32,108 bases of DNA. Origin: a bacterium. GTDB lineage: Bacteria; Calditrichota; Calditrichia; RBG-13-44-9; J042. Below, in pieces: positions 7,014-32,108 of the stretch (the stretch's first letter is position 1; the number at the start of each line of letters is the position of its first letter). A model generated the notes under the pieces. It was not told where the DNA came from. It did no database searches and saw nothing but the letters and a program-made list of their open reading frames with translations. The translations under genes were made by a program, and so were the position numbers. The DNA is taken from assembly GCA_015494485.1 (NCBI GenBank), contig WGBF01000221.1:1-32108 (forward strand). The letters are read 5' to 3'.

Positions 7014-9032
7014 ATGGTAACCTGGGGCACGGTGACACAGTTTGGCCTTGCGGCAGGGGGTGTTATTTCCCTGATTACGCTCTGGTTACTCATTCACCAG
7101 AAGCGTTTCAGCATCTTTACATCACTTTTCGCCTACTTAAACGCCCTGTTTTTTATTGAAATTATGGCTACAGTCATTACTGCCTCAACGCCGAAGACCA
7201 GTGCGGTGGTCATCGCCCATGGCATCCGTGTTATTACTGCCCTGTATATCCCGGCAATTCTTTTTTCCCTAATTTTCAACCGCTTTGATTCTACATTCTC
7301 AAAAAAACACATCGCCGTTACTGTGGCGGTATGGGGCAGTGCCACGTTGCTGGCCCTGCCGCTTGTGAACGGCACCTATTTTTCCCACCCAATCCCTCTG
7401 GAGCATTTTTCGTTACCGGAATATTCATCGTATTATTGGCTTATAATTGCCTATCTGGGGATGGTATTTTTCTTCTCCGCTCTCCTGTTATACCGGGGCT
7501 CCCATCTTCTTTCCCCGGCGGATCGTCGCCTTGCGGTTACGGTACTGTTTCCTTTTACAATTGGATTTTACACCGTTGTTCACATCCTCCCGGTTTGGGG
7601 TATATTTCACCCGGTATTTCTGCTGCTCTACCCCACAGGCGCGCTGATCATCTTCTACAGCATGCTTCACTTTCGGTTGCTGGAATCATCGCCGCGGGTT
7701 CAATTTGTTCTTCCCTTCTTGCTTCTTTTTACCATTCTGCTGGCCATTTTTTACATCGTGGTTCCCCCTGTTCCGGACTATGTTGTGCATTTTGCCATTG
7801 TGGTATTCACTGCACTGACCATCATCACCGGCACGGAATTCACCTTAATCATACATCGTCAATCTACGGAATCCCAGGCCGCGGCACATCAGACGCTGGA
7901 GAAACAACTGGCCACGTTTTCGGAAAAAATTACCACCTACCTGGAACCGGAAAAATTCTGGGAATACGTTGGCCACTTTTGCCATTCGACGTTCGGATAC
8001 AACCGCTGCGCCATTGTCACCTTTCAATACGACGTGCAGCCCTATAGAATTGCCTTCATTAGCGGATTTGAAACGGACCGTTTTCAATCCATGTTAACCG
8101 GCAATCCTTCCGTTATTCTGGACGAACTGGAACGCCAACGGCAAATTCTGAGCGTTCAACAATATCCGCCGGGTTCGGTGTTGCATGATGCCTTAACCCG
8201 CATGGGAATTGAAATCATTGTGCCCATTTTTGAAGACAGAAGTTTGGCAGGTATCATTTTCCTGGGCGGTGAAGGCCACTCCCCGGCCGATATCAAATCC
8301 ATGCAGCACCGGTTGTCGTTATTTGCCAACCATGTGGCAATTGCTTACAAAAATTTAAAGATTATCCGCCAGACAATGCAGGCCCAAAAAATGGCCGAAA
8401 TCGGGATGCTGGCCTCCCAGCTGGCCCACGATTTCCAATCCTTTATTTCCCTGGTAAAGCTGGAAAATGCGGATAATTCCCGCCTTGCGGAACATGCCCA
8501 GTACATGGAAAAACTGGTCAGCGATTTGCTGCAATTTGTCCGGCCACAGGAATTGCGCTTAACCCCGGTGAACATCAACGATTTGATTGACATGACACTG
8601 GACGTGTTGAACATTCCACCGGACGTCATTCTTGAAAAACATTACGCGGAGGAACTACCGGAGGTGAAGGTGGACATTAGTGAAATGCGGCGCGTGTTTA
8701 TGAACCTGCTGGAAAACAGCCTTCGGGCAATGCAGAATTCCAGCCACAAACGGATTAAAATTACCACCCGGCGGCTGCGACCCATCTCCCGGTTTCAACT
8801 CTCCCCCTGGTTGTACATCGAAATTCTGGACGAAGGGGAAGGCATTCCGGAAGAATATCTGGACAAAATTTTTGATCCGTTTTTTACCACGTACAAACAT
8901 CGGGGCGGCAACGGACTGGGGCTGGCCATTGTTAAGCAAATTGTAACCCGGCATCAGGGATACATTGACGTTGCCAGCCGTCCCGGTAAGGGAACTATTT
9001 TTAGCATTCGAATACCGTTCTTACTGCATTAA
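7014..9032 (+). CDS. sensor histidine kinase: polytopic membrane N-domain, GAF-like domain, HisKA, HATPase_c
   Basis: 672 aa. About 8 hydrophobic helices fill the first ~290 aa. H-box ASQLAHDFQSF, N-box MNLLENSLRAM, G1 ILDEGEGIPEE, G2 GGNGLGLAIVKQIV. The ATG directly abuts the mazG stop (TAAATG). Confidence 0.85.
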   Translation: MVTWGTVTQFGLAAGGVISLITLWLLIHQKRFSIFTSLFAYLNALFFIEIMATVITASTPKTSAVVIAHGIRVITALYIPAILFSLIFNRFDSTFSKKHIAVTVAVWGSATLLALPLVNGTYFSHPIPLEHFSLPEYSSYYWLIIAYLGMVFFFSALLLYRGSHLLSPADRRLAVTVLFPFTIGFYTVVHILPVWGIFHPVFLLLYPTGALIIFYSMLHFRLLESSPRVQFVLPFLLLFTILLAIFYIVVPPVPDYVVHFAIVVFTALTIITGTEFTLIIHRQSTESQAAAHQTLEKQLATFSEKITTYLEPEKFWEYVGHFCHSTFGYNRCAIVTFQYDVQPYRIAFISGFETDRFQSMLTGNPSVILDELERQRQILSVQQYPPGSVLHDALTRMGIEIIVPIFEDRSLAGIIFLGGEGHSPADIKSMQHRLSLFANHVAIAYKNLKIIRQTMQAQKMAEIGMLASQLAHDFQSFISLVKLENADNSRLAEHAQYMEKLVSDLLQFVRPQELRLTPVNINDLIDMTLDVLNIPPDVILEKHYAEELPEVKVDISEMRRVFMNLLENSLRAMQNSSHKRIKITTRRLRPISRFQLSPWLYIEILDEGEGIPEEYLDKIFDPFFTTYKHRGGNGLGLAIVKQIVTRHQGYIDVASRPGKGTIFSIRIPFLLH

Positions 9033-9050: not shown

Positions 9051-10397
9051 ATGAAACCCAACAATAAAGTACTCATTATTGAAGACAATGTCGCGTGGGG
9101 GGAAAGCTACAAAAAATGGATTGGGGACCAATATCAGGTAAAACTGGCCTTCAACAAAAGCGAAGCCCTGCAACAACTGGAAAATTTTGACCCGGACCTG
9201 GTCATTCTGGATTTGGGCTTGCCCCAGATTAAAGATGGATTTGAAATTCTGGATACCATCATCCGGCAGGGGAAGGATACCCAGATTATTGTGGTGACAT
9301 CCTTTAAAGACCATCATTATGCGCTGGAGGCCCAACGCCGCGGTGCCTATGCCTATTTTTCCAAAGGGGAAAATATTGAAGAAGAACTTCCGTATCTGGT
9401 CAAACAGGCCATGAAGATGCAGCGCCTGGAGCGCGAAAACAAAGAACTTCGCTCCAAATTACACTCCAACATTCGGTTTGACAACATCGTGGCCGTTTCC
9501 CGCCAAATGCAGGAAATTCTGTCCTTTATCGAACAAATCAAAAACAGCAAAGAACCCATTTTAATTACCGGTGAATCCGGGGTGGGTAAAGAGGTAATTG
9601 CCCGGCACATATTTGAAAGCAGCGACAATTACCGCAATAATTTTGTGGCCATCAATTGCGCTGCTCTTCCTCCCAACCTGCTGGAAAGTGAATTGTTTGG
9701 TTATGAGAAAGGGGCTTTTACCGGGGCTGTTCGGTCTACCCGGGGCAAACTGGAATTAGCCCACAACGGAACGTTATTCCTGGATGAAATTGGGGATATG
9801 CCGCTGGAATTGCAGAGTAAACTCCTGCGGGTTCTGGAAAGTAAGCGGTTTTATCGCCTGGGTGGTGAGGACGAAATCAGCGTGGATTTCCGCCTGATTT
9901 CGGCTACCAATCAACCCCTGGCGGAACTGGTAAAAAATGGCAAATTTCGACAGGATCTGTACTACCGGATTAACGTCATCCCCATTCACATCCCTCCGTT
10001 GCGGGAACGCCCGGATGACATCCCGGCCATGATTGAATTCTTCGCACAAAATTTTTGCAGAGAGAATGACCTCCCTTTGCCCAAATTTACCAATCGGGTC
10101 ATTGCTTTTCTGTCCCACCTGCCCTGGAAAGGCAACGCCCGGGAACTGGAAAACACCATTAAACGCCTTATCCTGATGAACCGTCCCCAGATTGACATCC
10201 AGGATCTTCCGCCGGACATCTTGGAGGAATCGGACAATTTTTTGGACCGGGCCCTGGCAGAAGAACTGACCCTGGAAGAAGTATCCCGCATTTACGTAAA
10301 AATGGTGTTGGAGCAGAAAGGGGGCAACAAACGCGAAGCCTGTAAAGCCCTGAATATCAATTACCGCACGTTGATGCGGAAACTGCAAGGAAAATGA
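9051..10397 (+). CDS. sigma-54-dependent Fis-family (NtrC-type) response regulator
   Basis: Intact receiver ([22 protein letters not shown]). The AAA+ domain has GESGVGKE Walker A, the GAFTGA sigma-54 contact loop and FLDEIGDM Walker B. C-terminal Fis-type HTH ([20 protein letters not shown]). GAGGGAGG RBS. Confidence 0.92.
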
Positions 10398-19872: not shown

Positions 19873-21936
19873 ATGGAAAAATCGCGTTTAAACCGCTGGC
19901 TGACGCAGCTTTCCGACACGCTGGACCAAACGTTTTTTCGGTTCCGCTCTACCGAGCACACCTTTATGGTCATTATGGCTATCATTATTGGTATTGTGGG
20001 CGGCTTTGGCGCGGTTGGTATCCAGTTCCTGATTAAGGTGTTTGTAAAACTGTTCTGGAACACCTGGGAATTTTCCATCGAATACGCCCGAACAGTTCCG
20101 CTGTACGTCAAAATCGGTGCTCCTGCCGCCGGCGGTGTAATCGTGGGGTTTATCGTGCACTATTTTGCGCAGGAAGCCAAAGGGCACGGGGTTCCGGAAG
20201 TAATGGAAGCAATTGCCCTCCGCAACGGGGTCATTCGGCCGCGGGTGGTGATTGCCAAATTGCTGGCCTCCTCTGCTTACATTGGCTCCGGGGGTTCCGT
20301 AGGACGGGAAGGTCCCGTTATCCAAATCGGGTCTTCCGTGGGTTCTACCGTGGGACAATTGCTACGGGTGAATCCCAAGCGGATGAAAATTTTTGTGGCC
20401 TGCGGGGCCGCAGCAGGCATTGCCGCTGCATTTAACGCCCCGGTTGCCGGCGCATTGTTCAGTGTGGAAGTCATTCTGGGGGATTTTGGCGTTGCCCAGT
20501 TTAGCCCCATCGTTATTTCTTCCGTGATGGCAACCGTGGTTTCCCGCCATTTTCTGGGGGATTTTCCCGCTTTTGAAGTTCCGGCCTACGAACTGGGTTC
20601 CCCCATGGAACTGGCCTTTTACATTGGATTGGGCCTCATTGCCGGTTTAATCTCCTTACTGTACATCAACACCCTGTATAAATTTGAAGACCTGTTTGAT
20701 GAATGGTCCATTCATCCGGTGCTGAAACCCATCATCGGTGGCCTCATTGTGGGCGTACTGGGGGTATTTGTTCCCCATATTTACGGCGTCGGGTATAACA
20801 CCATGAACCATGCCCTGCACGGGCAGTTATTGCTGGGCACCATGGTTGGCTTGATTTTTCTGAAAATATTTGCCACGTCGATTAGTTTGGGTTCCGGTGG
20901 TTCCGGTGGTGTATTTGCCCCGTCGCTCTTTATTGGTACCATGACCGGCGGCGCATTTGGGATTATCGTCAACCAACTGGTGCCGTTTGCATCTTCCCCC
21001 GGTGCGTATGCTCTTGTGGGAATGGGCGCCGTGGTTGCCAGTGCCACCCATGCCCCCATTACGGCCATTTTAATCATTTTCGAAATGACCAACGATTACA
21101 AATTAATTCTCCCGCTGATGATTTCCAGCGTCATTGCCACCCTTCTTACGACCAAACTGAAACGGGAATCCATTTACACCCTCAAATTAATCCGCCGTGG
21201 TATCGACTTGTTTCGCGGCCGGGAAATCAATTTACTGCGCTCCATTCCCGTCCGGGAAGTAATGCGTACCGACCCGGTAGTTATTCCGGCCAATACCAGC
21301 TTCAAAAAGCTCATGCAATTACTGGTTCACAGTGACCACACCCAGTTTTACGTGCTGGATTTCAACAACAATTTTGAGGGTTCCGTATCCCTCCACGAAG
21401 CGCGAAAAGCCCTGCTGGACGAGGAATATGTAGCGGATTTGTTAATTGCTCACGACCTGGTCAATCCCAACGTCCCCCGGCTGCGGCCATCCGACACGCT
21501 GGATGAAGTAATGAAAATTTTTGGCCAGGTGGATGCCGAAGAGCTGCCGGTAGTGGACGAAACAGACCCCGGGAAAGTCATTGGTACCGTATTTTACAAG
21601 GACGTCATCGAAGCCTACAACCGGGAAGTGGTGAAACGGAATCTGGTGGAAGAGATGAGCTCATCCATCAAATTGCTGGAAAAACATCACCAGATTCCTT
21701 TTCTGGATGGCTACGCCATGGCAGAAATTCCCGTGCCCCTCAGTTTTGTGGGAAAAACCTTGCGCGATTTGAACATTCGGGCCCGGTTTGGCGTTAACGT
21801 CATCATGATAAAACGACAACAGGATGGTCAGGAACCCACGGAAATTATGCCCTCACCGGATGAAACCATTCAGGCCGGTGATGTTTTAATTGCGGTAGGG
21901 CCGGAAAAAGATCTTGAGGTGCTACGACACTTATGA
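19873..21936 (+). CDS. ClC-family voltage-gated chloride channel/antiporter with C-terminal CBS pair and TrkA-C (RCK_C)-like domain
   Basis: Selectivity motifs GSGGSVGREGP, GVFAPS and GAAAGIAAAFNAPV. Two CBS-like repeats are followed by FGVNVIMIKR...IQAGDVLIAVGP. Confidence 0.9.
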   Translation: MEKSRLNRWLTQLSDTLDQTFFRFRSTEHTFMVIMAIIIGIVGGFGAVGIQFLIKVFVKLFWNTWEFSIEYARTVPLYVKIGAPAAGGVIVGFIVHYFAQEAKGHGVPEVMEAIALRNGVIRPRVVIAKLLASSAYIGSGGSVGREGPVIQIGSSVGSTVGQLLRVNPKRMKIFVACGAAAGIAAAFNAPVAGALFSVEVILGDFGVAQFSPIVISSVMATVVSRHFLGDFPAFEVPAYELGSPMELAFYIGLGLIAGLISLLYINTLYKFEDLFDEWSIHPVLKPIIGGLIVGVLGVFVPHIYGVGYNTMNHALHGQLLLGTMVGLIFLKIFATSISLGSGGSGGVFAPSLFIGTMTGGAFGIIVNQLVPFASSPGAYALVGMGAVVASATHAPITAILIIFEMTNDYKLILPLMISSVIATLLTTKLKRESIYTLKLIRRGIDLFRGREINLLRSIPVREVMRTDPVVIPANTSFKKLMQLLVHSDHTQFYVLDFNNNFEGSVSLHEARKALLDEEYVADLLIAHDLVNPNVPRLRPSDTLDEVMKIFGQVDAEELPVVDETDPGKVIGTVFYKDVIEAYNREVVKRNLVEEMSSSIKLLEKHHQIPFLDGYAMAEIPVPLSFVGKTLRDLNIRARFGVNVIMIKRQQDGQEPTEIMPSPDETIQAGDVLIAVGPEKDLEVLRHL

Positions 21937-22772
21937 GCATTTTAAAAACATTCAACATTCGGGACGGACGACAACGCAAGCAAACCATTGAGGTTCTGTA
22001 CGAAGACGACCACCTGGTCGCAGTAAATAAACCCGCGGGCTTACGGGTTATCCCCGATAGTTTTAACGCAGCGCTCCCCAATTTATTAACCATGCTGGAA
22101 TCCCGCTACCGGAAAGCGCTTGGGCAGGAAGGACAGCAACTGTGGGTGGTACACCGCATCGATATGCACACCAGTGGCGTAGTTATTTTTGCCCGCACCC
22201 CGGAAATGCACCGGCATTTAAACCGGATGTTTGAACACGGCGAGGTGCACAAAACATACTGGGCCGTTGTCCGGGGCTACGTTCAACCGCGGGAGGGACG
22301 CATTGACTTTCCCATGGCACCGCACCCGTCCCGCAGCCGCATGATGATTATTTCCGAAAAAGGTAAACCGGCCCGCACGGACTACCGGGTGCTGGAGGAA
22401 TTTGAACATTTTACCCTGGTGGAAGTGTATCCCCGTACCGGCCGCACCCATCAGATTCGGGTGCACTTTCAGGCCATAGGAAATCCCCTGGCCATTGACC
22501 CCATTTACGCCAAAACGCTCAGCATCGACATTTCCAATTTAAAACGGGATGTGGTTCGCAAACGGCATTCCCTGGACGAAACACCACCGGCTTTAATGCA
22601 ACGGCTTACGCTTCACGCTTTGCGCCTTTCCTTTACTCACCCGCTAACCGGAAAATCGTTTGAAGTGGAGGCAGCGCTTCCCAAAGATTTTCGGGCATTG
22701 CTTTCCGCCCTGCGGAAGTGGGATAAGCGGAAATCCCCCACGGAGTCTCCATCACTACCTGACTCTCAATAA
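21933..22772 (+). CDS. RluA-family pseudouridine synthase
   Basis: HRIDMHTSGVVIFA (catalytic Asp motif), KTYWAVV and GRTHQIRVH. The ATGA overlap with the ClC stop suggests translational coupling. Confidence 0.9.
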   Translation: MSILKTFNIRDGRQRKQTIEVLYEDDHLVAVNKPAGLRVIPDSFNAALPNLLTMLESRYRKALGQEGQQLWVVHRIDMHTSGVVIFARTPEMHRHLNRMFEHGEVHKTYWAVVRGYVQPREGRIDFPMAPHPSRSRMMIISEKGKPARTDYRVLEEFEHFTLVEVYPRTGRTHQIRVHFQAIGNPLAIDPIYAKTLSIDISNLKRDVVRKRHSLDETPPALMQRLTLHALRLSFTHPLTGKSFEVEAALPKDFRALLSALRKWDKRKSPTESPSLPDSQ

Positions 22773-22831
22773 CCCAACCCAGGCACCCCAAGAACTTTCA
22801 ATTCCCCTTTTATTTTCTTCTAAAAATTGTG

Positions 22832-22839
22832 TATTTTTG
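22832..22839 (+). promoter_or_regulatory. candidate -7 box TATTTTTG upstream of asd
   Basis: Exact TAnnTTTG, 27 nt upstream of ATG 22866, with a GAGGG RBS in between. Confidence 0.4.
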
Positions 22840-22865
22840 GCGCTAAAAATGTAGTGAGGGTTAAA

Positions 22866-23861
22866 ATGTTTACTGTAGCTGTGGTTGGCGCCACGGGTCT
22901 GGTGGGGCAAAAAATGTTAAAAGTCCTGGAGGAACGAAATTTCCCCGTCAAACGGTTGATTCCCATTGCATCCCGTCAATCCGCCGGGGAAAAAATTCGT
23001 TTTCGGGGAGAAGAACTTACGGTTCAGCCGCTCTCCGAAACGGTATTCGACGGTGTTGATTATGCCCTGTTTTCCGCAGGGGCCGCTATTAGCCGGGAAT
23101 TTGCCCCAAAGGCAGTGGCCCAAGGCGTGACCGTTATCGATAATTCCAGTGCGTGGCGAATGGACCCAAAGGTGCCATTGATTGTCCCGGAAGTAAATCC
23201 CCATGCCGTTTCCGCCGAAGACCGGCTCATTGCCAATCCCAATTGCTCTACCATTCAGATGGTAGTGGCCTTAAAGCCCCTACATGATCGGTTTCGGATT
23301 AAACGAATTGTGGTAGCAACCTATCAGGCAGTAACAGGAAGCGGCAAGCAGGCCGTCCAGCAATTGCATGAAGAATTGACCAGCGGGACTGCCAGCAATC
23401 CCTTTTACCCACACCCCATTGCTTTTAATTGTTTGCCGCATATTGATGTGTTTCAGGAAGATGGCTACACCAAAGAAGAACACAAGATGATATTTGAAAC
23501 CCATAAAATCATGGAAGACGACACCATTGGCGTATCCCCCACCGCGGTCCGGGTTCCCGTACTGGGTGGGCATTCGGAAGCCATTAACGTGGAATTTGCC
23601 CACTCCTTTAACCTCAATGAAGTGTACGAAATTCTTCAACAAGCGCCGGGAGTTACGGTGGTGGACAAACCTGCCCAAAACGAATACCCCATGCCGCTGT
23701 ATGCCGAAGATAAAGATGATGTATTCGTAGGGCGCATCCGGCGGGACCCTTCAATTCGGAATGGCTTGAATTTGTGGGTTGTAAGCGATAACTTGCGCAA
23801 AGGTGCGGCAACCAATGCGGTACAAATTGCGGAATTGATGATAACCAAACGGAGCCAATAG
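22866..23861 (+). CDS. asd: aspartate-semialdehyde dehydrogenase
   Basis: VAVVGATGLVGQ dinucleotide-binding motif, NPNCSTIQMVVAL active-site Cys, and SGGHS-like (LGGHSEAI) and DNLRKGAA motifs. The track start at 22827 is a TTG. Confidence 0.92.
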   Translation: MFTVAVVGATGLVGQKMLKVLEERNFPVKRLIPIASRQSAGEKIRFRGEELTVQPLSETVFDGVDYALFSAGAAISREFAPKAVAQGVTVIDNSSAWRMDPKVPLIVPEVNPHAVSAEDRLIANPNCSTIQMVVALKPLHDRFRIKRIVVATYQAVTGSGKQAVQQLHEELTSGTASNPFYPHPIAFNCLPHIDVFQEDGYTKEEHKMIFETHKIMEDDTIGVSPTAVRVPVLGGHSEAINVEFAHSFNLNEVYEILQQAPGVTVVDKPAQNEYPMPLYAEDKDDVFVGRIRRDPSIRNGLNLWVVSDNLRKGAATNAVQIAELMITKRSQ

Positions 23862-23916
23862 ATTGCGGAAACCGAAGGCTAAACGTCCCGTGGCCTCCCC
23901 CACCTCTGCTCCGGTC

Positions 23917-24654
23917 ATGCCGGGTGCAGAACCAATTTTCATAGACCAGGGTGAAAAGGGCCTACTATTCTTGCACGGTTTTACCGGTTCCCCCTACGAG
24001 GGGCGCGATTTTGCGGAATATTTCAAAGAAAAAGGATACACCATCTGGGTTCCCTTACTCCCCGGACACGGGACGCATCCCCGGGATATGGAACACGTTA
24101 CCTGGGAAGATTGGTACCGCGCCGCCCGCAATCATCTGTTCAAATTGCAACGCAAATGCCGCAAGGTAGCCGTGGTGGGGCAATCCATGGGTGCCGCCCT
24201 GGCCATGAATCTGGCGGCCCATTACCCATTTGATGCGCTGGTTACCCTGGCAGGATTTGTTTTTTTAACCGACTGGCGTTTGAAATTGCTGCCAGTAGCC
24301 CGGCACGTTTTGCGCTACCAGTACAAGTCCAAGGGACCGGACATTCACTCCAGGGAAGCGAAGAAAAGGAGCGCCTCCTACCACAAATATCCGGTGAAGA
24401 GCATCCAGCAACTACTGGCATTAATTGAACACGTACGGGGGGATTTACTGGATATTCACATTCCAACGTATTTAGTCCACGCCAAACGCGACCATGTTGT
24501 GCCGTATTCCAACCTGGACTACCTGTACAATCACATCGGTTCTAAAATCAAAAAACGACTGCTGGTGGAAAATTCATACCACATTGTCAGCGTGGATTAT
24601 GACAAAGATTTAATATTTAAAGAATTGGACGCCTTTTTCAAAAAGTATTTATAA
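23917..24654 (+). CDS. alpha/beta hydrolase, Est30-like carboxylesterase / lysophospholipase type
   Basis: LLFLHGFTGSP, the GQSMGA nucleophile elbow, and late D (KRDHVV) and H (NSYHIV). The start is uncertain: ATG 23917 or TTG 23863. Confidence 0.78.
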   Translation: MPGAEPIFIDQGEKGLLFLHGFTGSPYEGRDFAEYFKEKGYTIWVPLLPGHGTHPRDMEHVTWEDWYRAARNHLFKLQRKCRKVAVVGQSMGAALAMNLAAHYPFDALVTLAGFVFLTDWRLKLLPVARHVLRYQYKSKGPDIHSREAKKRSASYHKYPVKSIQQLLALIEHVRGDLLDIHIPTYLVHAKRDHVVPYSNLDYLYNHIGSKIKKRLLVENSYHIVSVDYDKDLIFKELDAFFKKYL

Positions 24655-24677
24655 TGTAAGAATACACTACGTTCGCT

Positions 24678-24929
24678 TTAGCATCCCTCTTCTTCTTCCC
24701 CTTCATGGAGCTGCATTTCCGGCGGCACTACCGGTTTTTGTGGCTGTGCTTGTATATTCGCGCCCCGTTCCACAGTTCGTGCCGTCGGACGATTCCACAA
24801 TTGCTGATACCGTTGCAACTTGCCGGCATTCAATTGCTCCGCAGACGGAAATGAAAACGCTACAATCAAAGCAATAACCATCAGAACAATCGATAACACT
24901 GTAAGAATTTTTAAATTTTCGTTGTTCAT
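24678..24929 (-). CDS. 83-aa membrane-anchored protein with acidic C-terminal ...HEGEEEEGC tail (hypothetical; candidate sulfur-carrier arm)
   Basis: AAAGGAGAA RBS. One N-terminal TM helix (ILTVLSIVLMVIALIVAFSF), then a Pro/Gln-rich linker. The single Cys is the last residue. The tail is paralogous to that of the 26250-26882 product. Confidence 0.65.
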   Translation of the reverse strand: MNNENLKILTVLSIVLMVIALIVAFSFPSAEQLNAGKLQRYQQLWNRPTARTVERGANIQAQPQKPVVPPEMQLHEGEEEEGC

Positions 24930-24948
24930 ACCCCATTCTCCTTTAAAC

Positions 24949-24976
24949 GCGGTGGGGAATAGAAATTCCCCACCGC
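24949..24976 (-). terminator. intercistronic perfect 12-bp stem-loop (GCGGTGGGGAAT-N4-ATTCCCCACCGC); possible attenuator or mRNA-stability element
   Basis: Read directly; 8 of the 12 pairs are G:C. On the minus strand it starts 10 nt after the rhodanese stop. It is followed by GTTTAAAGGAG, a weak U-tract that runs straight into the RBS of the next gene. Confidence 0.5.
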
Positions 24977-24986
24977 TGGTGTTTCC

Positions 24987-25862
24987 TTATTTGCATGCAG
25001 CGCAGGCAATGGCACAATCCGCGCAACTTGCCCATTCGTTCATCGAACCATCGTACAACCGCGCCGGTAATTTGGCAATTTCATTAAAAGCAAACCACCC
25101 AATAGAAGCGATATTCCCCGAATTACAAAAATGGATAGCAGGCGTACCCACGCCCTTTACTTTTGCCAGCGCTTTAATGGCATCTGCCGATTTGAAGGTC
25201 CAATCCGCATTAAAATACATCGTAAAGGGAATATTTATTGCGCCTTTAATGGTACCTGGCTTGGCCACCACTTTGTGTTTCTTCTTACCCAGATAGAAAT
25301 CTGCCGGCCGGTCATCCACAAGATATTTGGCTTTTTTCACGTCTTCCAGAGTGGCCAGAGCGGTTTTATTGAAATCCTTTAACGTGATATTGCCTTTTTT
25401 GGTAATCGTCGGTACTTCGGTGGATACCTTATATCCGTTAGCTTTCCAGGCTTTTAAACCACCATCCAGCACGGAAACGTTCACCCCAAAGTTTTTTAAG
25501 GTGAAGTAAGTCCGGGTGGCATAATACACCATTTTCAACTTCGTATCCGGCCATACCACAATAACGTGGGAATTGTTGGAAATCCCCAGGTCCCGGAGGT
25601 ACTGCTGTAATGCCGCCTTATCCGGCAACTCTGCCACCAATCCGTTCCGTTTGACTTCAATTTTTTTGAAGTCGGCCCGAATGGCCCCGGGGATATGCCC
25701 CTGCGCGTACACTTTGGCTGAGGACACATCCAGCACCACCACATTGGGCGCGTTTAAATTGTCATGAAGCCACTTGGCGAAAACCAGTGGTTGGGCATTA
25801 CCAATTGTTGCAGCGGCAAACACAAAAATCAGAATAAGGTACAACCATTTTACGGACCGCAT
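24987..25862 (-). CDS. secreted two-domain rhodanese (thiosulfate/3-mercaptopyruvate sulfurtransferase architecture) with Cys-rich C-terminal tail
   Basis: Sec signal peptide MRSVKWLYLILIFVFAAATIGNAQ. The N-terminal domain is inactive (VVWPDTK). The C-terminal domain is catalytic, with the loop HFCNSGNIAS. The protein ends in SCADCAIACAACK. AGGAGGG RBS. Confidence 0.85.
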   Translation of the reverse strand: MRSVKWLYLILIFVFAAATIGNAQPLVFAKWLHDNLNAPNVVVLDVSSAKVYAQGHIPGAIRADFKKIEVKRNGLVAELPDKAALQQYLRDLGISNNSHVIVVWPDTKLKMVYYATRTYFTLKNFGVNVSVLDGGLKAWKANGYKVSTEVPTITKKGNITLKDFNKTALATLEDVKKAKYLVDDRPADFYLGKKKHKVVAKPGTIKGAINIPFTMYFNADWTFKSADAIKALAKVKGVGTPAIHFCNSGNIASIGWFAFNEIAKLPARLYDGSMNEWASCADCAIACAACK

Positions 25863-25964
25863 TTTTCTGCCCTCCTATTTTTCTCTATATATTGGAGGAG
25901 TTACGATACATTTATCTTTCTGCATGATTAACACAGTACCCAAATTATTTATACGGCAACGAAA

Positions 25965-26012
25965 GAGGAAATTCCTCCTTTTCTATTGCACCTTATTCTT
26001 CTATCGCACCTT
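25965..26012. repeat. 13-bp palindrome GAGGAA-A-TTCCTC followed by two 14-bp direct repeats TTCTATYGCACCTT (18-bp period)
   Basis: Read directly. The palindrome is at 25965-25977 and the repeats are at 25981-25994 and 25999-26012 (13/14 identical). They lie 100-150 nt upstream of the rhodanese ATG (25862), within a 387-nt AT-rich spacer. Confidence 0.4.
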
Positions 26013-26249
26013 CTATTAAACTTGCATGGTAATTCATTATTCAAAACTGACAAATTAATCTATACTTTATATATGTGAAGAACCCGCTCTGATACAACCT
26101 TCTAAATCTAAAGATTCCAAATACAAAAGCCTTTTCCACTTATTTCCTGCTATGCTACACGAACAACTGACCAAAAGTCTTTAATGGTAATATGTATATC
26201 ATCCAAAGAACACATCTCTCTTAAAACCCGAAACATCCGCGTGTGACAA

Positions 26250-26882
26250 TTAACATCCTTCATCTTCTTCTTCAGCTTCCTGCAAGACAATATGCCGTTT
26301 TTTAGGTTTTTGGGGTTTAGACTGCGCAGCTGTAACTCCGATTCCTCCTTTGTTAAAATATTGGGAAGCTGCTTTCCGGAAGCTAAACTGCAGTACTTCC
26401 GTATCCGAAGACAAATCACTGGGAGGATTGGGATTCAAAATAGCTTTTGCCCAGTAGTTTAAGCCACCAAGCAAATAATAACTATTAATGCCCAACGTTT
26501 TTAGAATAACCCAGGCTTGCGCGCTATAACGGTCACCATTAGAATAAAGAATGAGGGTTTTGGTCCTCCGAAGCCATTTTATGTTTTCTGGAGAAACCAA
26601 CTGCCCCAGGGGTATATTTTCTGCGCCTTCAAGATGGTATTGCATATATTCATCTTTACGACGCAGGTCAATAATTGTAATACCCGGTTTTTTGTTAATA
26701 ATCCAATCGGCTAATTGTTCTGCCGTCACATAATCACTCTGGCTTAAAATAGAATTAATAATATCCTGTGGGGAAAAACGTTGAAATTTTTTTTCTCCTG
26801 CAGGAGAGATTGCCAGTAAAAATCCAAGTAAAAGTAACACTAAAATGCCAACTTCTTTGGTGAATAGTTGTTTTAGTTTCAT
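26250..26882 (-). CDS. membrane-anchored single rhodanese-like domain protein lacking the catalytic Cys (Ser114), with acidic ...QEAEEEDEGC C-terminal tail
   Basis: N-terminal anchor or signal KEVGILVLLLLGFLLAIS. The rhodanese fold pattern (ITIIDLRRKDEY..GHLEGAENIP...LILYSNGDRYSAQAWVILKTLG) has TCT (Ser) at 26541-26543 where the C-x5-R loop Cys is expected. The only Cys is the last residue. Confidence 0.8.
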   Translation of the reverse strand: MKLKQLFTKEVGILVLLLLGFLLAISPAGEKKFQRFSPQDIINSILSQSDYVTAEQLADWIINKKPGITIIDLRRKDEYMQYHLEGAENIPLGQLVSPENIKWLRRTKTLILYSNGDRYSAQAWVILKTLGINSYYLLGGLNYWAKAILNPNPPSDLSSDTEVLQFSFRKAASQYFNKGGIGVTAAQSKPQKPKKRHIVLQEAEEEDEGC

Positions 26883-26911
26883 GACCTTCTCACCCCTAAC
26901 AATTATTTTTA

Positions 26912-27523
26912 TTATTCCATTGGTGTTTCACCTTCAATAATTTCACCGAATTTCTTTTCAATTAGTTCAGCTACTTTAAACAATCCCCATGCCATCAGAA
27001 TAACTAAAAAGGCAACAACACCTGGTCGCCATCCTAACCATTCAGGTAGCGTTACCCTACCCATAGGATGGCCATTAATGAAATTTTGAACAAAAGGATA
27101 TATCTCACCAAATATCCACATTCCAAATAACGCACCGCCCACATAAAACATTCCATCCAATTTCCCAATGGCACTGGCTACCAGAGAAGTTCCAGGACAA
27201 AATCCACCAATAACAAACCCTAAGCCCATTAGAACCCCACCCAGAATTTGTCCATTTAAAATGGTTGGTGGCACATATACTAAAGAAATGTCCAGAATTT
27301 CAGCCCAATTTAGATATAGCAATCCTACCATAGCCACAACGATAGCGGTAAACATGACTTTCAACACAGCCATATCCTTCAAATAGAATTGGTAAGCCAA
27401 TTTTCTGGAATTGCCAAAGCCTGAACTTTCCAAAATGTAGCCAAATAACAATCCGATAATGAATGCGAAAATCAAGCTGGTATCAAATCCAAAATATCCC
27501 AATTTGTATAATGGTGCAATCAT
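26912..27523 (-). CDS. YeeE/YedE-family sulfur-transport membrane protein (half-size, second of pair)
   Basis: 203 aa with 4-5 TM helices. It carries the conserved GGFCPGTS motif of the PF04143-type 'sulphur transport' repeat. GTGAGGT RBS. Confidence 0.82.
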   Translation of the reverse strand: MIAPLYKLGYFGFDTSLIFAFIIGLLFGYILESSGFGNSRKLAYQFYLKDMAVLKVMFTAIVVAMVGLLYLNWAEILDISLVYVPPTILNGQILGGVLMGLGFVIGGFCPGTSLVASAIGKLDGMFYVGGALFGMWIFGEIYPFVQNFINGHPMGRVTLPEWLGWRPGVVAFLVILMAWGLFKVAELIEKKFGEIIEGETPME

Positions 27524-27538
27524 GATTTTTACCTCACA

Positions 27539-28057
27539 TTATATCCATTGTTTACGCAAAAAATACGCGAACGCATATGCCGCAATAAACATTACCCAGA
27601 GGAAAATCCAGCTTCCCAAACTCAACGTGGCCCCTCCGGTAAGCCCCTGGCCACTGGTACATCCACGAGCAATACGTGCACCAATACCCATAGTCATTCC
27701 ACCCAGAAAAGCTAATAGCCAGCGTCCTTTATTGGAAATGCGGGGTCCATGATCGGTTTTAAAGCCTAATCGGCCATGGATATAGCCTGATAAGAAACCA
27801 CCAAAGAGGACACCCAGAATTTCAAATACCAACCAGGCTTTCAAGGGAGAACCACCTTTTAAATATTTGGCAAAATAAGGGTTAGCTTGAGCATGTTCAG
27901 GGCTGACTAATGATAAAATGTAGGTAACCAATCTCATTTCTCCGCCAGATGCTCCCAGGCCCCGTCCCATGATAAAAAAGGTCATCAATAACAAAAGGCC
28001 TAACATCAATCCAGCAAAATAAGGATTCCAATACGGTTTAGACTGCGGCTTTTTCAT
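27539..28057 (-). CDS. YeeE/YedE-family sulfur-transport membrane protein (half-size, first of pair)
   Basis: 172 aa with 4 TM helices and the conserved ARGCTSGQGLTG motif. AAGGAG RBS. Confidence 0.82.
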   Translation of the reverse strand: MKKPQSKPYWNPYFAGLMLGLLLLMTFFIMGRGLGASGGEMRLVTYILSLVSPEHAQANPYFAKYLKGGSPLKAWLVFEILGVLFGGFLSGYIHGRLGFKTDHGPRISNKGRWLLAFLGGMTMGIGARIARGCTSGQGLTGGATLSLGSWIFLWVMFIAAYAFAYFLRKQWI

Positions 28058-28078
28058 TAGGTTTCTCCTTTATCATTA

Positions 28079-29014
28079 TTAGAACGAACTCAATTGTCCC
28101 GCTTGAACAAAAATAAATCGCATTAAAATGCCCCCAAATAAAATCAATACTGCTGCCACACGGGTTCGCTTTCCTAAATTGGATATTTCCAGTGTTTCCA
28201 AAATAGCGGGTATTATAATACCTAATCCCACAACCAAAACCCAAAACGAAGCAGTATAGGGACCACCTAAGAATAATTTAGCAGCTTGTATTTTCACTTC
28301 ACTGGAAGCCAGTAATCCCATAAATAGATGGATGATAAAAAACAATTCAAGACTTATGGTCATCAAATCAATCTTGTTTAATAACAAATGTTCCTCATGA
28401 TTTTTAGAAAGTAACATTAGAAATGCTAGACCTGTGGACAGACCGGATACTAAGAATAGAGGCCCTAAAATTGCAGAATTCCAGAAAGGACGGGCATTAA
28501 AAGCACTAAGTAATATTCCGGTATACATTCCTAAAATCATCGACAATACCATTAAAATCCAGGCCAGAAGCTTGCTCTTTTTTTGAGTATAGGAAACAAC
28601 AGATTGAAAAACCGGATGCGGCCATCGCCATTTTGGAAATACCGATGTAATGTGCAACATCGCCCATAAGATACTCAAGGGTAATATAGTGATTAGGGTC
28701 CATGCCCCCCAAGACATAGGCGATTTCAATCGTAATGTCATATAAAATCGAAACAAATGGAGTTTATAATCCAGATCTAGAAATAATGCAAACATCCCAA
28801 TTGCCAATAAAATAGGGGCCCAAATAGCTCCCAATCGAACAATAGCGGGATATTCCTCCTCTTTTCCGCGTAAATAATATAAAGCAGAAAAGAAGAGTAA
28901 CCCTGCCACTAAGCCACCTAAAAACAAATAGGTTGGAATTTGCCAGTGCCAGATGGTTAAATATGGGTCAATCAAGTGGTTATGGCGTCCGCTAACGATC
29001 GTCACTTCGTGCAT
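28079..29014 (-). CDS. nrfD: NrfD/PsrC-family molybdoenzyme membrane anchor subunit
   Basis: 311 aa with 8 predicted TM helices. The N-terminus W.IPTYLFLGGLVAGL is typical of the NrfD/PsrC family. It directly follows the 4Fe-4S subunit gene. Confidence 0.88.
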   Translation of the reverse strand: MHEVTIVSGRHNHLIDPYLTIWHWQIPTYLFLGGLVAGLLFFSALYYLRGKEEEYPAIVRLGAIWAPILLAIGMFALFLDLDYKLHLFRFYMTLRLKSPMSWGAWTLITILPLSILWAMLHITSVFPKWRWPHPVFQSVVSYTQKKSKLLAWILMVLSMILGMYTGILLSAFNARPFWNSAILGPLFLVSGLSTGLAFLMLLSKNHEEHLLLNKIDLMTISLELFFIIHLFMGLLASSEVKIQAAKLFLGGPYTASFWVLVVGLGIIIPAILETLEISNLGKRTRVAAVLILFGGILMRFIFVQAGQLSSF

Positions 29015-29029
29015 GGCTCGACCTCACTA

Positions 29030-29566
29030 TTACGTTAAATAGAACACTTTGGGTTTAGTCCCCGCCTCTGGGTGCAATACATGATGATGGCGGGTCTTTA
29101 ACAATTTGGATACTTCACTTTCCGGATCATCCAGATCACCAAAATGCATCGCATGTGTAGGGCAAACTTCCACACATGCTGGCAGCAAGCCTTCCTTCAA
29201 GCGATGTTCACAAAATGTACATTTATCCACATACCCTTCCGGATGGACATACCGGGCATCATAAGGGCAGGCTGCTATACATGCTTTACAACCAGTGCAC
29301 TTATCCTTATCCACCAGTACAATTCCCCCTTCCACCACGTGGCTGGCGCCGGTAGGACAGCACCGAACACAAGGAGGATTTTCACAATGATTACATCGTT
29401 CGGATCGAATTTCCATATATAATTCCGGAAATAATCCCTGTACATCCTGCACAATCCAATCCCGACAATACCCCACCGGGACGTTATTCTCCGTCTGGCA
29501 GGCTACCACACAATCGCCACACCCGACACATCGTTGCGTATCAATTACCATTCCATATCGGGCCAT
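29030..29566 (-). CDS. 4Fe-4S dicluster-domain electron-transfer subunit (PsrB/PhsB/NrfC type)
   Basis: Four Cys clusters: CVGCGDCVVAC, CNHCENPPCVRCCP, CTGCKACIAACP and CTFCEHRL...CVEVCP. GGAGGA RBS. Confidence 0.9.
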   Translation of the reverse strand: MARYGMVIDTQRCVGCGDCVVACQTENNVPVGYCRDWIVQDVQGLFPELYMEIRSERCNHCENPPCVRCCPTGASHVVEGGIVLVDKDKCTGCKACIAACPYDARYVHPEGYVDKCTFCEHRLKEGLLPACVEVCPTHAMHFGDLDDPESEVSKLLKTRHHHVLHPEAGTKPKVFYLT

Positions 29567-29584
29567 GATGTCCTCCGTTATTGC

Positions 29585-31837
29585 TTAAGCGGTTAGCTTT
29601 TTTACTTTTCGAAATGTAACAAAATTGGTTCGTAAACCTGTTCCCCCCATAACGGGGTCCGTTTTTACTTTCGTAATTAATTTTGCGGTTGAAGCACCTT
29701 TTTTATAGGCGCGTTTTAAACGCCTATCCCAGTGACCAAAACCATGGACCATATAGACACAATCATGCCGGATGCGTTCGGTTACTTTTACACGGATTTT
29801 ATTACTGCGCGCGCCATCCTGATTTTCTAATATCACATATTCCCCATTTTTAATGCCATGCAATTGGGCTACTGTCGGATGCACCCATACTTCATTCTCC
29901 TTCATCAATTGATATAATAGAGGATTATTGGTAGTACGGCTAAAGCTATGCATTGGTGCACGCCCATAAATCAATCGATAATACCCCTCTGGAGGTTCTT
30001 CGGGATGTTCATAAGTGGGTAAGGGATCAAACCCTGCAGCTTCCATTACGGTGGAATATAATTCGATCTTACCTGTGGGAGTTCTAAACCGCGGCTGAAT
30101 ACCTTCTTCAAAATAAATCGGCGTTTTTTGTTCGGGTAAACGAACCACCCCTTTCTTTTTTAGTTCCGCTAGCGATAAGCCAACTTGCTTAAGACGATAA
30201 TCCAGATACTCTTCAATATCATTCCATGGGAACCATTTATCCAGCCCCAGACGATGTGCCAATTGTTTCGCCATCCACCAGGAAGGTTTGCTTTCCCACC
30301 TCGGCGGGAAAGCCGGGGCTCGCAATGCAATGGTAGGCATTTTCCCTTGAGAAATCCGTAAATCATCATACCGTTCCAGATATGTACATTCCGGTAATAC
30401 CACATCCGCCCAGCCAGTAATTTCGGAGGGGATAATATCTATGACGGCAATGAAATCTAATTTCTGGATAGCATCAATAGTTTTTTGCGGTTCTGGCAGA
30501 GTCATTAAAAGATTTGTAGCATTTACCATCCAACCTTTGATTGGATGTGTAGCATTATCTCCTTGCAAAGTTACATCACGAAGCACATTTGTTGGTGCTT
30601 TACGTGCTAATGGATATTGATCTAGGGTTAAATCTTTCCAAGTCCACCGCGGCTCCGGGAAGGGTGGGAGAGGATATTTAGGTACCCGAGCTTTGTTTGG
30701 ATAATAGTACCCTCCCCGTCTACCCCAGGAACCGAGCAAAGCGACTAGTATGGCTAATGCCCGTTCCCGTTGGGTATCGTTGCCATACCAAGTAACGTGG
30801 CGCCCGGGATGAATCAAAGTTGCCGGTTTTTGCATGGCCATCTCCCGAGCAGTTTGTCGAATGATATGAGGTTTGATTGTAGTAATTGGGTAAGCCCATT
30901 CCGGGGTGTAAGGCTGAATAAATTTCTTTAATTTATCAAAACCATAAGTATATTTTTCTACATATTCCTTATCATATAAATTTTCTTGAATCATTACATT
31001 GATCCAGGCCAGTAATAAAGCTAAATCTGTTCCCGGCCGAATGGGTAACCAATATTTTGATTTACTAGCTGCAGTGGAATAACGAGGATCCACTGTAATG
31101 ATTGTTGCACCTCGAGCCACCGCGTCAGAAAATTCCTGAACCTGAGAATTCAACATATTTTCACCAATATGACTCCCTATCAATACAATACAACGCGCAT
31201 TAGGGATATCAATCCGTTCTGGAGAACCAATTCCCTCTCCAAATGTTAAGCGAAATCCTTCCTCCCTGGGCCCACGGCATTGGGCATAAGAAGGTTCAGC
31301 AATTGTGTCAGAACCAAAAGCTTTGAATAACGGTTCAAAAAAACGGCTCCCAGAACCATGGGTAAACAACGCCATGCTTTCCGGACCATATTTATCCGCA
31401 ATTTTCTTCATATTTTCTGCAATAAAATCCAATGCTTCTTCCCATGTTACTTGAACAAATTGTTGCTTTCCTCGCACAACCTTTCGCATTAAAGGATATT
31501 TTAATCGTTCGTTATCCGTATATGCCCCTATGCCACCTGTTCCCCGGGGACACAATCGTCCATTGCAATTCGGATCGTCTTTATGCCCAACGATCTTCCA
31601 AGGTTTGCCATCAACTTTGTATACCCAACCAGCACATTTCCAGAAACAAATCTCACAATATGTGGGACTCACTTCCAGGTTTCCCGGGGTATTAGGACCA
31701 ACCAACGGTAAAGCATCAGCTTGAGGCCACTCGGACTCGGAAACAATAGCCTCCAGAGCTTTACCCCCAATTGCCAAACCCGCAACACCTATTCCACTAA
31801 TTTTAAGAAACTCCCGCCGAGTAAACTTCGGACTCAT
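29585..31837 (-). CDS. Tat-exported molybdopterin (bis-MGD) oxidoreductase catalytic subunit, PsrA/PhsA (polysulfide/thiosulfate/tetrathionate reductase-like) family
   Basis: 750 aa. Twin-arginine signal FTRREFLKISGIGVAGLAIG. N-terminal FS0 motif CEICFWKC-x28-C. RLKYPLMR and a candidate Mo-ligand Cys in SYAQCRGP. There is no in-frame TGA. AAGGAG RBS. Confidence 0.88.
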   Translation of the reverse strand: MSPKFTRREFLKISGIGVAGLAIGGKALEAIVSESEWPQADALPLVGPNTPGNLEVSPTYCEICFWKCAGWVYKVDGKPWKIVGHKDDPNCNGRLCPRGTGGIGAYTDNERLKYPLMRKVVRGKQQFVQVTWEEALDFIAENMKKIADKYGPESMALFTHGSGSRFFEPLFKAFGSDTIAEPSYAQCRGPREEGFRLTFGEGIGSPERIDIPNARCIVLIGSHIGENMLNSQVQEFSDAVARGATIITVDPRYSTAASKSKYWLPIRPGTDLALLLAWINVMIQENLYDKEYVEKYTYGFDKLKKFIQPYTPEWAYPITTIKPHIIRQTAREMAMQKPATLIHPGRHVTWYGNDTQRERALAILVALLGSWGRRGGYYYPNKARVPKYPLPPFPEPRWTWKDLTLDQYPLARKAPTNVLRDVTLQGDNATHPIKGWMVNATNLLMTLPEPQKTIDAIQKLDFIAVIDIIPSEITGWADVVLPECTYLERYDDLRISQGKMPTIALRAPAFPPRWESKPSWWMAKQLAHRLGLDKWFPWNDIEEYLDYRLKQVGLSLAELKKKGVVRLPEQKTPIYFEEGIQPRFRTPTGKIELYSTVMEAAGFDPLPTYEHPEEPPEGYYRLIYGRAPMHSFSRTTNNPLLYQLMKENEVWVHPTVAQLHGIKNGEYVILENQDGARSNKIRVKVTERIRHDCVYMVHGFGHWDRRLKRAYKKGASTAKLITKVKTDPVMGGTGLRTNFVTFRKVKKLTA

Positions 31838-31960
31838 ATGAGTCTCCTTTTCGTTTTGGCCTTTAATTGGTTATAATTATCTTTTCGCATGTTTAAACCA
31901 CTCTCGTCAAGTAATAGACATATTCAGAAAATATACCTGATTTTTTTTATTTTCATTTTC

Positions 31961-32005
31961 TCATTCACAATACTGTAAAATTTCACTCGTTCAATCATTC
32001 ACAAT
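31961..32005. repeat. two exact 11-bp direct repeats TCATTCACAAT, 34 bp apart, upstream of the molybdoenzyme operon
   Basis: Read directly at 31961-31971 and 31995-32005. They lie 124-168 nt upstream of ATG 31837, and each contains a TCACA half-site. Confidence 0.4.
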
Positions 32006-32050
32006 GAAAAATAATTACTAAATAAATAAAACACAATATAAAATATTTTT

Positions 32051-32066
32051 TGTGAAATATATCCCA
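32051..32066. promoter_or_regulatory. CRP/FNR-family-like site TGTGA-N6-TCCCA
   Basis: 9/10 match to TGTGA-N6-TCACA, 214-229 nt upstream of the psrA-like ATG. It could equally serve an unseen divergent gene beyond the window. Confidence 0.25.
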
Positions 32067-32108
32067 AATATTTTGGCCCAAAAACCGACTTTTCGTAAGG
32101 TTCACTAC

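Follow-up and report, generated by a model that had tools for sequence, protein, structure and literature searches.

Cysteine-Arm Sulfur Carriers and an 83-Residue Protein

Proteins that carry sulfur on a cysteine in a C-terminal arm form a known precedent class. The arm of DsrC, which ends in P-T-G-C-V, enters the active site of DsrAB and carries a persulfide or trisulfide, and Sud and SbdP are periplasmic rhodaneses that serve polysulfide or sulfur reductases. By analogy with the arm carriers, a role in sulfur transfer may be proposed for an 83-amino-acid (83-aa) protein encoded on contig WGBF01000221.1 (GCA_015494485.1). The contig belongs to an 86%-complete metagenome-assembled genome (MAG) from a small FCB-group phylum with 86 species genomes; the whole stretch analyzed, called the window here, is 32,108 nucleotides (nt) long. 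The protein consists of a membrane anchor, a linker, and a tail tipped with Gly-Cys, and its gene lies in a locus that also encodes two rhodanese-family proteins of 291 and 210 aa, the two halves of a split YeeE/YedE-type channel, and a Psr/Phs-type molybdenum (Mo) reductase (Table 1).

SoxY is a periplasmic protein whose flexible C-terminal arm holds one Cys between glycines (GGCGG) and ferries sulfur adducts between active sites. It is, however, a folded and soluble protein with a Tat signal and a SoxZ partner, and it serves oxidation, whereas the 83-aa protein is membrane anchored, has no folded domain, ends in E-G-C-COOH, and belongs to a reductase operon. Neither the SoxY fold nor GGCGG is present, and the Pfam-scanned genes from 23863 to 31837 include no SoxZ-like gene. 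In DsrC and TusE (PF04358), as in the 83-aa protein, the chain ends in a flexible arm, and a Cys adjoins a Gly near its tip. DsrC, however, is a cytoplasmic protein with a helical fold and two arm cysteines, and is unrelated in sequence to the 83-aa protein, which has one Cys and no Pfam or NCBIfam match at E values up to 0.01. The likeness to Sud and SbdP is that of an accessory sulfur-binding protein on the periplasmic side of a Psr-type reductase, but these proteins hold sulfur on the active-site Cys of a folded rhodanese domain that the 83-aa protein lacks.

Proposals for the channel side of such systems also exist. The sulfane sulfur on the SoxY cysteine has been proposed to pass into YeeE-like SoxT channels, and the half-size proteins PmpA and PmpB have been proposed to form a YeeE-like heterodimer (Li et al. 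2024, PMC11582611). YeeD (TsuB) is a small Cys-bearing partner beside a YeeE-family channel and is needed for the function of that channel, as cited in PMC11582611. It differs from the 83-aa protein in being soluble and cytoplasmic with a TusA fold and a CPxP motif; the 83-aa protein has neither, and its tail is probably periplasmic. A further likeness lies within the window itself. The anchored 210-aa rhodanese-like protein shares with the 83-aa protein the type of anchor, the sole Cys at a disordered tip, and a gene position after the YeeE C-half. The 83-aa protein differs in lacking the ~130-residue domain and in an anchor that has an aromatic residue before its Pro (FSFP, or GYP in relatives) instead of ISPAG.

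Channels of the YeeE/YedE type and reductases of the Psr/Phs type are common in anaerobic sulfur cycling, and how they hand insoluble or reactive sulfur to one another is poorly understood. No description of the tail was found in the papers searched on YeeE, Psr, and rhodaneses, on the Srr selenite reductase, or on the psr genes of Marine Group A, and the cysteine-tipped arm is apparently undescribed. What is new is the recurrent anchor-only form, the presence of the arm on a Mo subunit, and the resulting view that the arm itself would be the functional unit.

A Small Gene Under Purifying Selection

The 83-aa protein (MNNENLKILTVLSIVLMVIALIVAFSFPSAEQLNAGKLQRYQQLWNRPTARTVERGANIQAQPQKPVVPPEMQLHEGEEEEGC) was first noticed in the raw sequence, and the original prediction gave it a single transmembrane (TM) helix at residues ~8–27, a Pro/Gln-rich linker, its own ribosome-binding site (RBS), and a strong hairpin between it and the rhodanese gene directly upstream. 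All four features are there. The hydrophobic run covers residues 8–27, and the anchor segment (VIALIVAFSFPS) fits the motif LLGxxLA[IVF][GS](Y/F)P. Residues 28–75 contain 8 Gln and 6 Pro in 48 positions. The RBS and the hairpin are placed in Table 1. AlphaFold2 models of four orthologues have a helix at residues 2–26, a low-confidence helix at 30–45, and disorder in the remainder. Cys83, the final residue after HEGEEEE-G, is the only Cys. The tail had been given as EEEEGC, which is right for the end itself and too narrow for the conserved block: this reaches back to KP-x-VPPEM and reads KP-x-VPPEM-x-LHEGEEEEGC in the orthologues. The predicted C-terminal tryptic peptide, released by a cut after R55, is GANIQAQPQKPVVPPEMQLHEGEEEEGC.

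The end of the tail is rare in the genome. Only two open reading frames (ORFs) in the 3.5-Mb assembly end in E-[DE]-[DE]-[DE]-G-C-stop, the 83-aa ORF and the 210-aa rhodanese gene 1.3 kb upstream, and the reversed pattern, searched as a control in the same assembly, gave 0 matches.

Homologues exist beyond the strain; their absence had been named as a point that would refute the first reading. Orthologue clusters in public collections are 96% (P0001), 72% (P0002), and 50% (P0019) identical over 80 aa, and small proteins of the same build occur in foreign metagenome loci described in the next section. The expectation that pipelines would call such a protein hypothetical or miss it holds for the first half only: all three clusters lack a name or Pfam domain, but they are present in public gene calls. 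The orthologue loci are syntenic with the window. The small gene follows the 291-aa rhodanese and converges on the same flanking genes as the window copy, those for an alpha/beta-hydrolase, asd, a pseudouridine synthase, and ClC.

The pattern of substitution indicates that the 83-aa ORF is a true gene kept by purifying selection. In the comparison with the orthologue at 72% identity (locus L002), the proportion of synonymous differences (pS) is 0.78, which is saturated, while that of nonsynonymous differences (pN) is 0.17. By segment, pN is 0.10 in the helix (residues 1–30), 0.33 in the linker, and 0 in the last 19 codons, which have 8 synonymous and no nonsynonymous changes. Even in P0019, the tail differs from that of the window by two substitutions only (V67A and Q73H), and the frame is intact in genomes down to 50% identity. 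A GGAG stands at equal spacing before the small-gene ATG in L002 and in L011, a second orthologue locus. The notion of a decaying remnant of an anchored rhodanese gene, or of a spurious ORF, draws on the resemblance of the protein to both ends of the 210-aa family, its lack of a domain match, and the position of its gene, last and behind a terminator-like hairpin, but it is hardly credible and may be set aside because synonymous divergence is saturated while pN is low, the 19-residue tail is unchanged, the frame and RBS spacing are kept, and small forms recur at the same position in five further lineages.

Two other ORFs overlap the gene, at 24703–24936 on the minus strand (77 aa) and at 24705–24854 on the plus strand (49 aa). 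They were treated as spurious, not being conserved: between the window and L002 the longest open stretches of these frames shrink from 79 to 43 and from 71 to 42 residues.

One Arm, Three Scaffolds

In L002 and L011, the 291-aa rhodanese gene and the small gene are preceded by a cassette different from, but homologous to, that of the window. It encodes a NarJ-like chaperone, a Tat-exported Mo subunit, an FeS subunit with a helix at its C terminus, a fusion of cytochrome b with the YeeE N-half, and the YeeE C-half. The Mo subunit of this type is 52% identical to window PsrA. Fusions of cytochrome b with the YeeE N-half lie at L002:6915–8411 and L011:4523–6028 and in ~45 metagenome loci (L096–L142, L146, L156, and L158). 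Because the cytochrome b is fused to half of the channel, the reductase and the channel would act as one physical complex.

JGI metagenomes were probed with the cytochrome-b::YeeE fusion, and the 80 loci returned were all annotated. In most of them, from soil, peat, and sediment, the YeeE C-half is followed by an anchored rhodanese of the 210-aa type ending in ...KLKLGRGCS. The small form occurs in six cytochrome-b-type metagenome loci (L096, L097, L098, L099, L100, and L146). L096 has the gene order of L002 and L011, namely YeeE C-half, 291-aa rhodanese, and small gene. The other five have a small protein of 83–133 aa directly after the YeeE C-half; L097–L100 are 49–58% identical to the probe, and L146 matched it over the YeeE part only. 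These foreign proteins have a helix ending in LLA[IV]GYP, a variable and often Lys-rich linker, a Pro stretch, and an acidic end of the form ...[DE]EGC, and in every small protein the one Cys is the final residue.

The arm is tied to the channel more widely than the small form. Proteins ending in G-C(-x) right after the YeeE C-half, counted with no TM filter, are present in 77 of 78 Psr/NrfD-type loci and in all 41 cytochrome-b-type loci (118/119), against a background in which 1.9% of all ORFs of 60 aa or more from these loci have such an end. The ends vary across the family (GGC, EGC, GGCS, GGCD, RGCS, and GSC). A selenocysteine form of the terminal Cys, read as G-TGA-stop, was found in none of ~120 loci.

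A scan of one genome per GTDB species yields 262 relatives of the 210-aa protein, in Calditrichota, KSB1, Bacteroidota, and Marinimicrobia, and the gene closes the PsrA–PsrB–NrfD–YeeE_N–YeeE_C cassette in all 80 loci examined. Cultured carriers of the six-gene cassette are Labilibaculum manganireducens and Ancylomarina sp. DW003. At the position of the rhodanese active site the family has Y113-S114-N115, with N115 invariant and the other two residues in at least 90% of members. G209 and C210 are invariant. The sole Cys stands at the tip of a tail for which AlphaFold2 predicts disorder, a polybasic stretch precedes the [EG]-G-C end in most members, and the N-flanks of the anchors are positively charged.

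A hidden Markov model (HMM) links the small proteins to both Gly-Cys-tipped products of the window. Built from the five foreign small proteins only (L097–L100 and L146) and run with filters off against the 18,687 ORFs of the genome, it ranks the 210-aa rhodanese first (E = 7.5e-6) and the 83-aa ORF second (E = 4.2e-4; profile positions 5–89 on residues 3–83), and the third, unrelated ORF has E = 0.32. The foreign anchor motif LLGxxLA[IV][GS][YF]P aligns with the TM helix of the 83-aa protein. From the other side, a profile made from columns 1–40 of the rhodanese-family alignment places the 83-aa ORF second of 18,687 (E = 0.17; 0.006 for the L011 orthologue). The C-terminal profile of that family, in which the polybasic stretch outweighs the rest, fails to extend to the acidic tail. 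A profile–profile comparison of the small-protein alignment with the rhodanese family aligns 14 TM columns with a match probability of 6%, the sequences being short and of low complexity.

Because of the profile matches and the identical gene position, the 83-aa protein appears to be the minimal, domain-less member of this family. It has the terminal G-C on a disordered tail, the TM anchor motif, and a co-directional gene after the YeeE C-half; the window has a variant of that order, in which the pair of 291-aa rhodanese and small gene stands behind a swapped Psr/YeeE cassette. The rhodanese domain (PF00581) is missing, the ~55 residues past the helix being weak helix and disorder. That the ORF is both a real gene and a domain-less member of the Gly-Cys-arm family is very probable.

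The third scaffold is the Mo subunit. In six loci (Table 1), Mo subunits with the N-terminal Tat motif S/T-R-R-x-F-[LI]-K extend ~45 Pro-rich residues beyond the end of window PsrA and finish in ...EETDEEEGC, ...EEVEEEEGC, ...SEEDEGC, and similar sequences, and Mo-subunit fragments in L096 and L097 whose N-termini are cut off have a tail of the same kind. Window PsrA has no such extension. Because the Mo subunit is Tat exported, the arm is periplasmic at least on this scaffold. Judging by these sequences, the arm is a portable module, mounted on a bare anchor, an anchored Cys-less rhodanese, or the C terminus of a Mo subunit, and the rhodanese fold is dispensable to it. What stays constant around the Gly-Cys arms is the pair of YeeE halves and a Mo reductase of the Psr/Phs type, not the adjacent two-domain rhodanese. 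The constant accessory of such operons is the flexible arm and not the rhodanese fold.

A Terminal Thiol as Proposed Sulfur Carrier

The 83-aa protein is best pictured as a bitopic inner-membrane microprotein with one N-terminal helix, a flexible arm of ~55 residues, and no folded domain. The arm would lie on the periplasmic face, which is consistent with the presence of the same tail on the Tat-exported Mo subunit and on the anchored rhodanese-like family. Sulfane sulfur would bind to the thiol of Cys83 in persulfide or polysulfide form, probably delivered by the secreted 291-aa rhodanese encoded next door, and the arm may swing this sulfur among the rhodanese, the funnel of the reductase, and the mouth of the YeeE channel, with the acidic run steering it into positively charged pockets of its partners. 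By analogy with the arms of SoxY and DsrC, the balance tips toward a sulfur carrier with a terminal thiol, and the protein probably carries its sulfur outside the cytoplasmic membrane. The stand-alone tethered carrier suggested at the outset thus fits the architecture; the partner with which it co-occurs is the split YeeE channel with the Mo reductase and not, as then supposed, the adjacent rhodanese.

Several points weigh against this picture. What the small proteins share is a TM helix plus a short tail of low complexity, and some of this likeness could have arisen by convergence on one partner instead of descent. Relatives of the 83-aa protein were confined to a narrow clade in a search of 5.8 billion clusters and 1.84 billion representatives, and a six-frame search of the 37 genomes of the order gave no match. 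The charges flanking the helix do not fix the topology, and the anchor-only form may have a cytoplasmic, YeeD-like position. The Glu run beside Cys83 should raise the pKa of the thiol and repel anionic polysulfide or thiosulfate, which is odd for an acceptor; in most of the family the stretch before the G-C is polybasic, unlike the acidic tail of the 83-aa protein. Candidate substrates of the Mo enzyme are polysulfide, thiosulfate, tetrathionate, and selenite, the last with Srr as a precedent.

A broader proposal is more tentative. The Gly-Cys arm may be the working substrate handle of the whole Psr/Phs-like class, taking the place of free polysulfide or thiosulfate, so that sulfur travels covalently on a thiol shuttling among the channel, the rhodanese, and the Mo site. 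A domain-less anchor plus a string would then be enough, and an enzyme could carry its own arm. Such a scheme would redefine the role of split YeeE/PmpAB channels in anaerobic sulfur respiration, and the 83-aa protein would be the first domain-less, membrane-tethered sulfur-carrier microprotein. The arm is a minimal object that can be synthesized for tests, as a peptide of ~28 residues or as the single-Cys protein of 83 residues.

Alternative Readings of the Arm

The tail might dock instead of carry. As a docking or gating peptide, the acidic Gly-Cys end would plug or regulate the positively charged mouth of YeeE or the funnel of the reductase, or nucleate a supercomplex, with the Cys as a ligand or a latch, for example in a reversible disulfide with a channel Cys. 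The tail is constantly paired with the YeeE halves, the fusion of the reductase anchor to the YeeE N-half in the cytochrome-b cassette points to a supercomplex, an acidic tail would mimic an anionic substrate, and the anchor motif is more strongly conserved than simple anchoring would require. The charge before the G-C, however, varies from polybasic in most of the family to acidic in this clade, which makes a single electrostatic mode unlikely, and G-C alone is invariant, which points to thiol chemistry. We consider a docking role unlikely.

A second alternative turns the protein around. With the N terminus outside and the tail inside, it would be a tethered cytoplasmic analogue of YeeD/TsuB, which is TusA-like, and would accept thiosulfate or sulfane sulfur where the YeeE channel opens to the cytoplasm. 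Domain scans found no TusA/YeeD partner in the operon, and YeeD is essential for YeeE-mediated uptake in Escherichia coli, as cited in PMC11582611. The charge bias of the 83-aa protein is neutral (N-flank 0, C-flank +1): the N-flank has no net positive charge, and K37, R40, R47, R51, and R55 lie past the helix. Against this stand the closest relatives, which bear the same tail on a Tat-exported Mo subunit, and the anchored rhodanese family, which has the same tail and positive N-flanks. The small proteins of L097 and L098 have N-flanks of +5 and +4; for several other small relatives the charge rule is ambiguous. The 291-aa rhodanese next door, moreover, has a Sec-type signal peptide. An inward-facing tail is accordingly improbable, more so than docking.

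Less probable again is a partner in thiol redox or metal chemistry. In this reading, disulfide exchange would take place between Cys83 and the CxxCxxxCxxC terminus of the 291-aa rhodanese, or a metal or metalloid, such as selenium, or Mo/W during maturation, would be chelated by the Glu4-Gly-Cys end. The four-Cys tail of the rhodanese is kept in all three small-gene genomes, its best NCBIfam match, below the cut-off, is ExtH, a selenite/tellurite-operon protein, the YedE family includes selenium transporters, and rhodanese-domain genes occur in the Srr selenite reductase operon. The small forms of L098 and L099, however, have no such rhodanese nearby, the absence of selenocysteine from the tail ends of ~120 loci speaks against selenium chemistry, and chelation by carboxylates and a thiol fails to explain the polybasic members. 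The sulfur carrier with a periplasmic terminal thiol remains the reading we prefer.

The Window Locus and Its History

Table 1 Features of the window, with Mo subunits of related loci
Feature	Position	Strand	Basis or remark
Gene for the 83-aa protein (anchor, linker, Gly-Cys-tipped tail)	24678..24929	-	ATG start; stop codon 24678-24680
Invariant tail KPVVPPEMQLHEGEEEEGC, residues 65-83	24681..24737	-	Cys codon TGC 24681-24683
TM helix, residues 8-27, conserved LAFSFPS motif at end	24849..24908	-	Hydrophobic run and AlphaFold2 helix 2-26
Shine-Dalgarno-like AAAGGAG	24938..24944	-	8 nt before ATG of small gene
12-bp GC-rich hairpin between 291-aa rhodanese stop and small gene	24949..24976	-	10 nt past stop
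Secreted two-domain rhodanese, 291 aa	24987..25862	-	PF00581 in two stretches; catalytic Cys in HFCNSGN
Anchored 210-aa rhodanese-like protein, ends ...EAEEEDEGC	26250..26882	-	PF00581; Ser replaces catalytic Cys
Split YeeE/YedE channel (C-half 26912-27523, N-half 27539-28057)	26912..28057	-	PF04143 / PF20398
Psr/Phs-type reductase, NrfD anchor	28079-29014	-	Pfam and NCBIfam matches
Psr/Phs-type reductase, 4Fe-4S subunit	29030-29566	-	Pfam and NCBIfam matches
Psr/Phs-type reductase, Tat-exported Mo subunit (PsrA)	29585-31837	-	Best match PhsA, 482 bits, below the 694-bit cut-off
Mo subunits with tail, related loci	L002:3814-6153, L011:1423-3759, L098:2760-5135, L099:1283-3703, L100:41-2383, L104:381-2717		

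Co-occurrence of the small protein with the adjacent two-domain rhodanese across genomes had been named as a check, and it did not extend beyond a narrow clade. In L098 and L099 the small gene closes the cassette, and within 3–5 kb downstream of it there is no rhodanese; the genes there encode a deaminase, a restriction–modification pair, and sugar enzymes. Homologues of the 291-aa rhodanese at 47% identity or less stand in other gene contexts and have no Cys tail, and a six-frame search of the phylum's 86 genomes at E <= 1e-30 gave no match. The 291-aa rhodanese was therefore rejected as a conserved partner of the small protein, the pairing being confined to that clade. Its signal-peptide-like N-terminus is conserved in L002 and L011. 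The end of the protein, C-x2-C-x3-C-x2-C-x, is encoded at 24990–25025 of the window.

A spacer of 387 nt separates the 291-aa rhodanese gene from the six-gene block. The cytochrome b and NarJ-like genes of the L002/L011 cassette have no match in the window's 86%-complete genome, and the Psr/YeeE/210-aa rhodanese cassette (25863–32108 region) has a GC content of 36–46%, against 49–55% in the flanking housekeeping genes (20000–24600 region). The ancestral order may have been NarJ-like chaperone, Mo subunit with EGC tail, FeS subunit, cytochrome b::YeeE N-half, YeeE C-half, rhodanese, and small protein. In the window, the front of this cassette would have been replaced by an incoming PsrABC/YeeE/rhodanese cassette of lower GC content with its own G-C end, while the 291-aa rhodanese and the small gene stayed. 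Inferred from synteny, the simplest history looks like cassette replacement by horizontal transfer. The window locus now has two arms.

The hairpin after the 291-aa rhodanese stop has a minimum free energy of −24.9 kcal/mol (z = −3.35), and 0 of 200 shuffled sequences fold as well. No U-tract follows it on the minus strand, and a plus-strand scan calls it terminator-like. Counterparts lie after the rhodanese stop in L002 (~9949–9977) and L011 (~7568–7592) with different sequences, so across the three genomes the structure is conserved and the letters are not. It may also terminate antisense transcription that enters from the convergent hydrolase gene.

The route by which these genes are found deserves mention. 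A scan of the JGI metagenomes with the small-protein alignment returned 0 relatives past tblastn, a step that short tails cannot pass. Small ORFs such as the 83-aa gene are "hypothetical" in public genomes; searches by sequence hardly connect them, and gene context alone brings them to light.

A few observations on the 210-aa family stand by themselves. In some MAGs of Bacteroidales, tandem paralogues of the 210-aa type, both ending in ...AAGGGCD, close the Psr/YeeE cassette (L082:1501–2747 and L083:9971–11229). In a single case, a MAG from KSB1, a protein with GCS2 (glutamate–cysteine ligase family 2) and CBS domains is encoded two genes past the G-C-tailed rhodanese (L006:8681–10603). Finally, a contig of 4516 nt (L013, WAPZ01000430.1) binned as "Candidatus Heimdallarchaeota archaeon S146_22" encodes NrfD, both YeeE halves, the 291-aa rhodanese, and the small protein, along with a 210-aa rhodanese that is 100% identical to that of the window; it is almost certainly a mis-binned bacterial contig from the species of the window organism.

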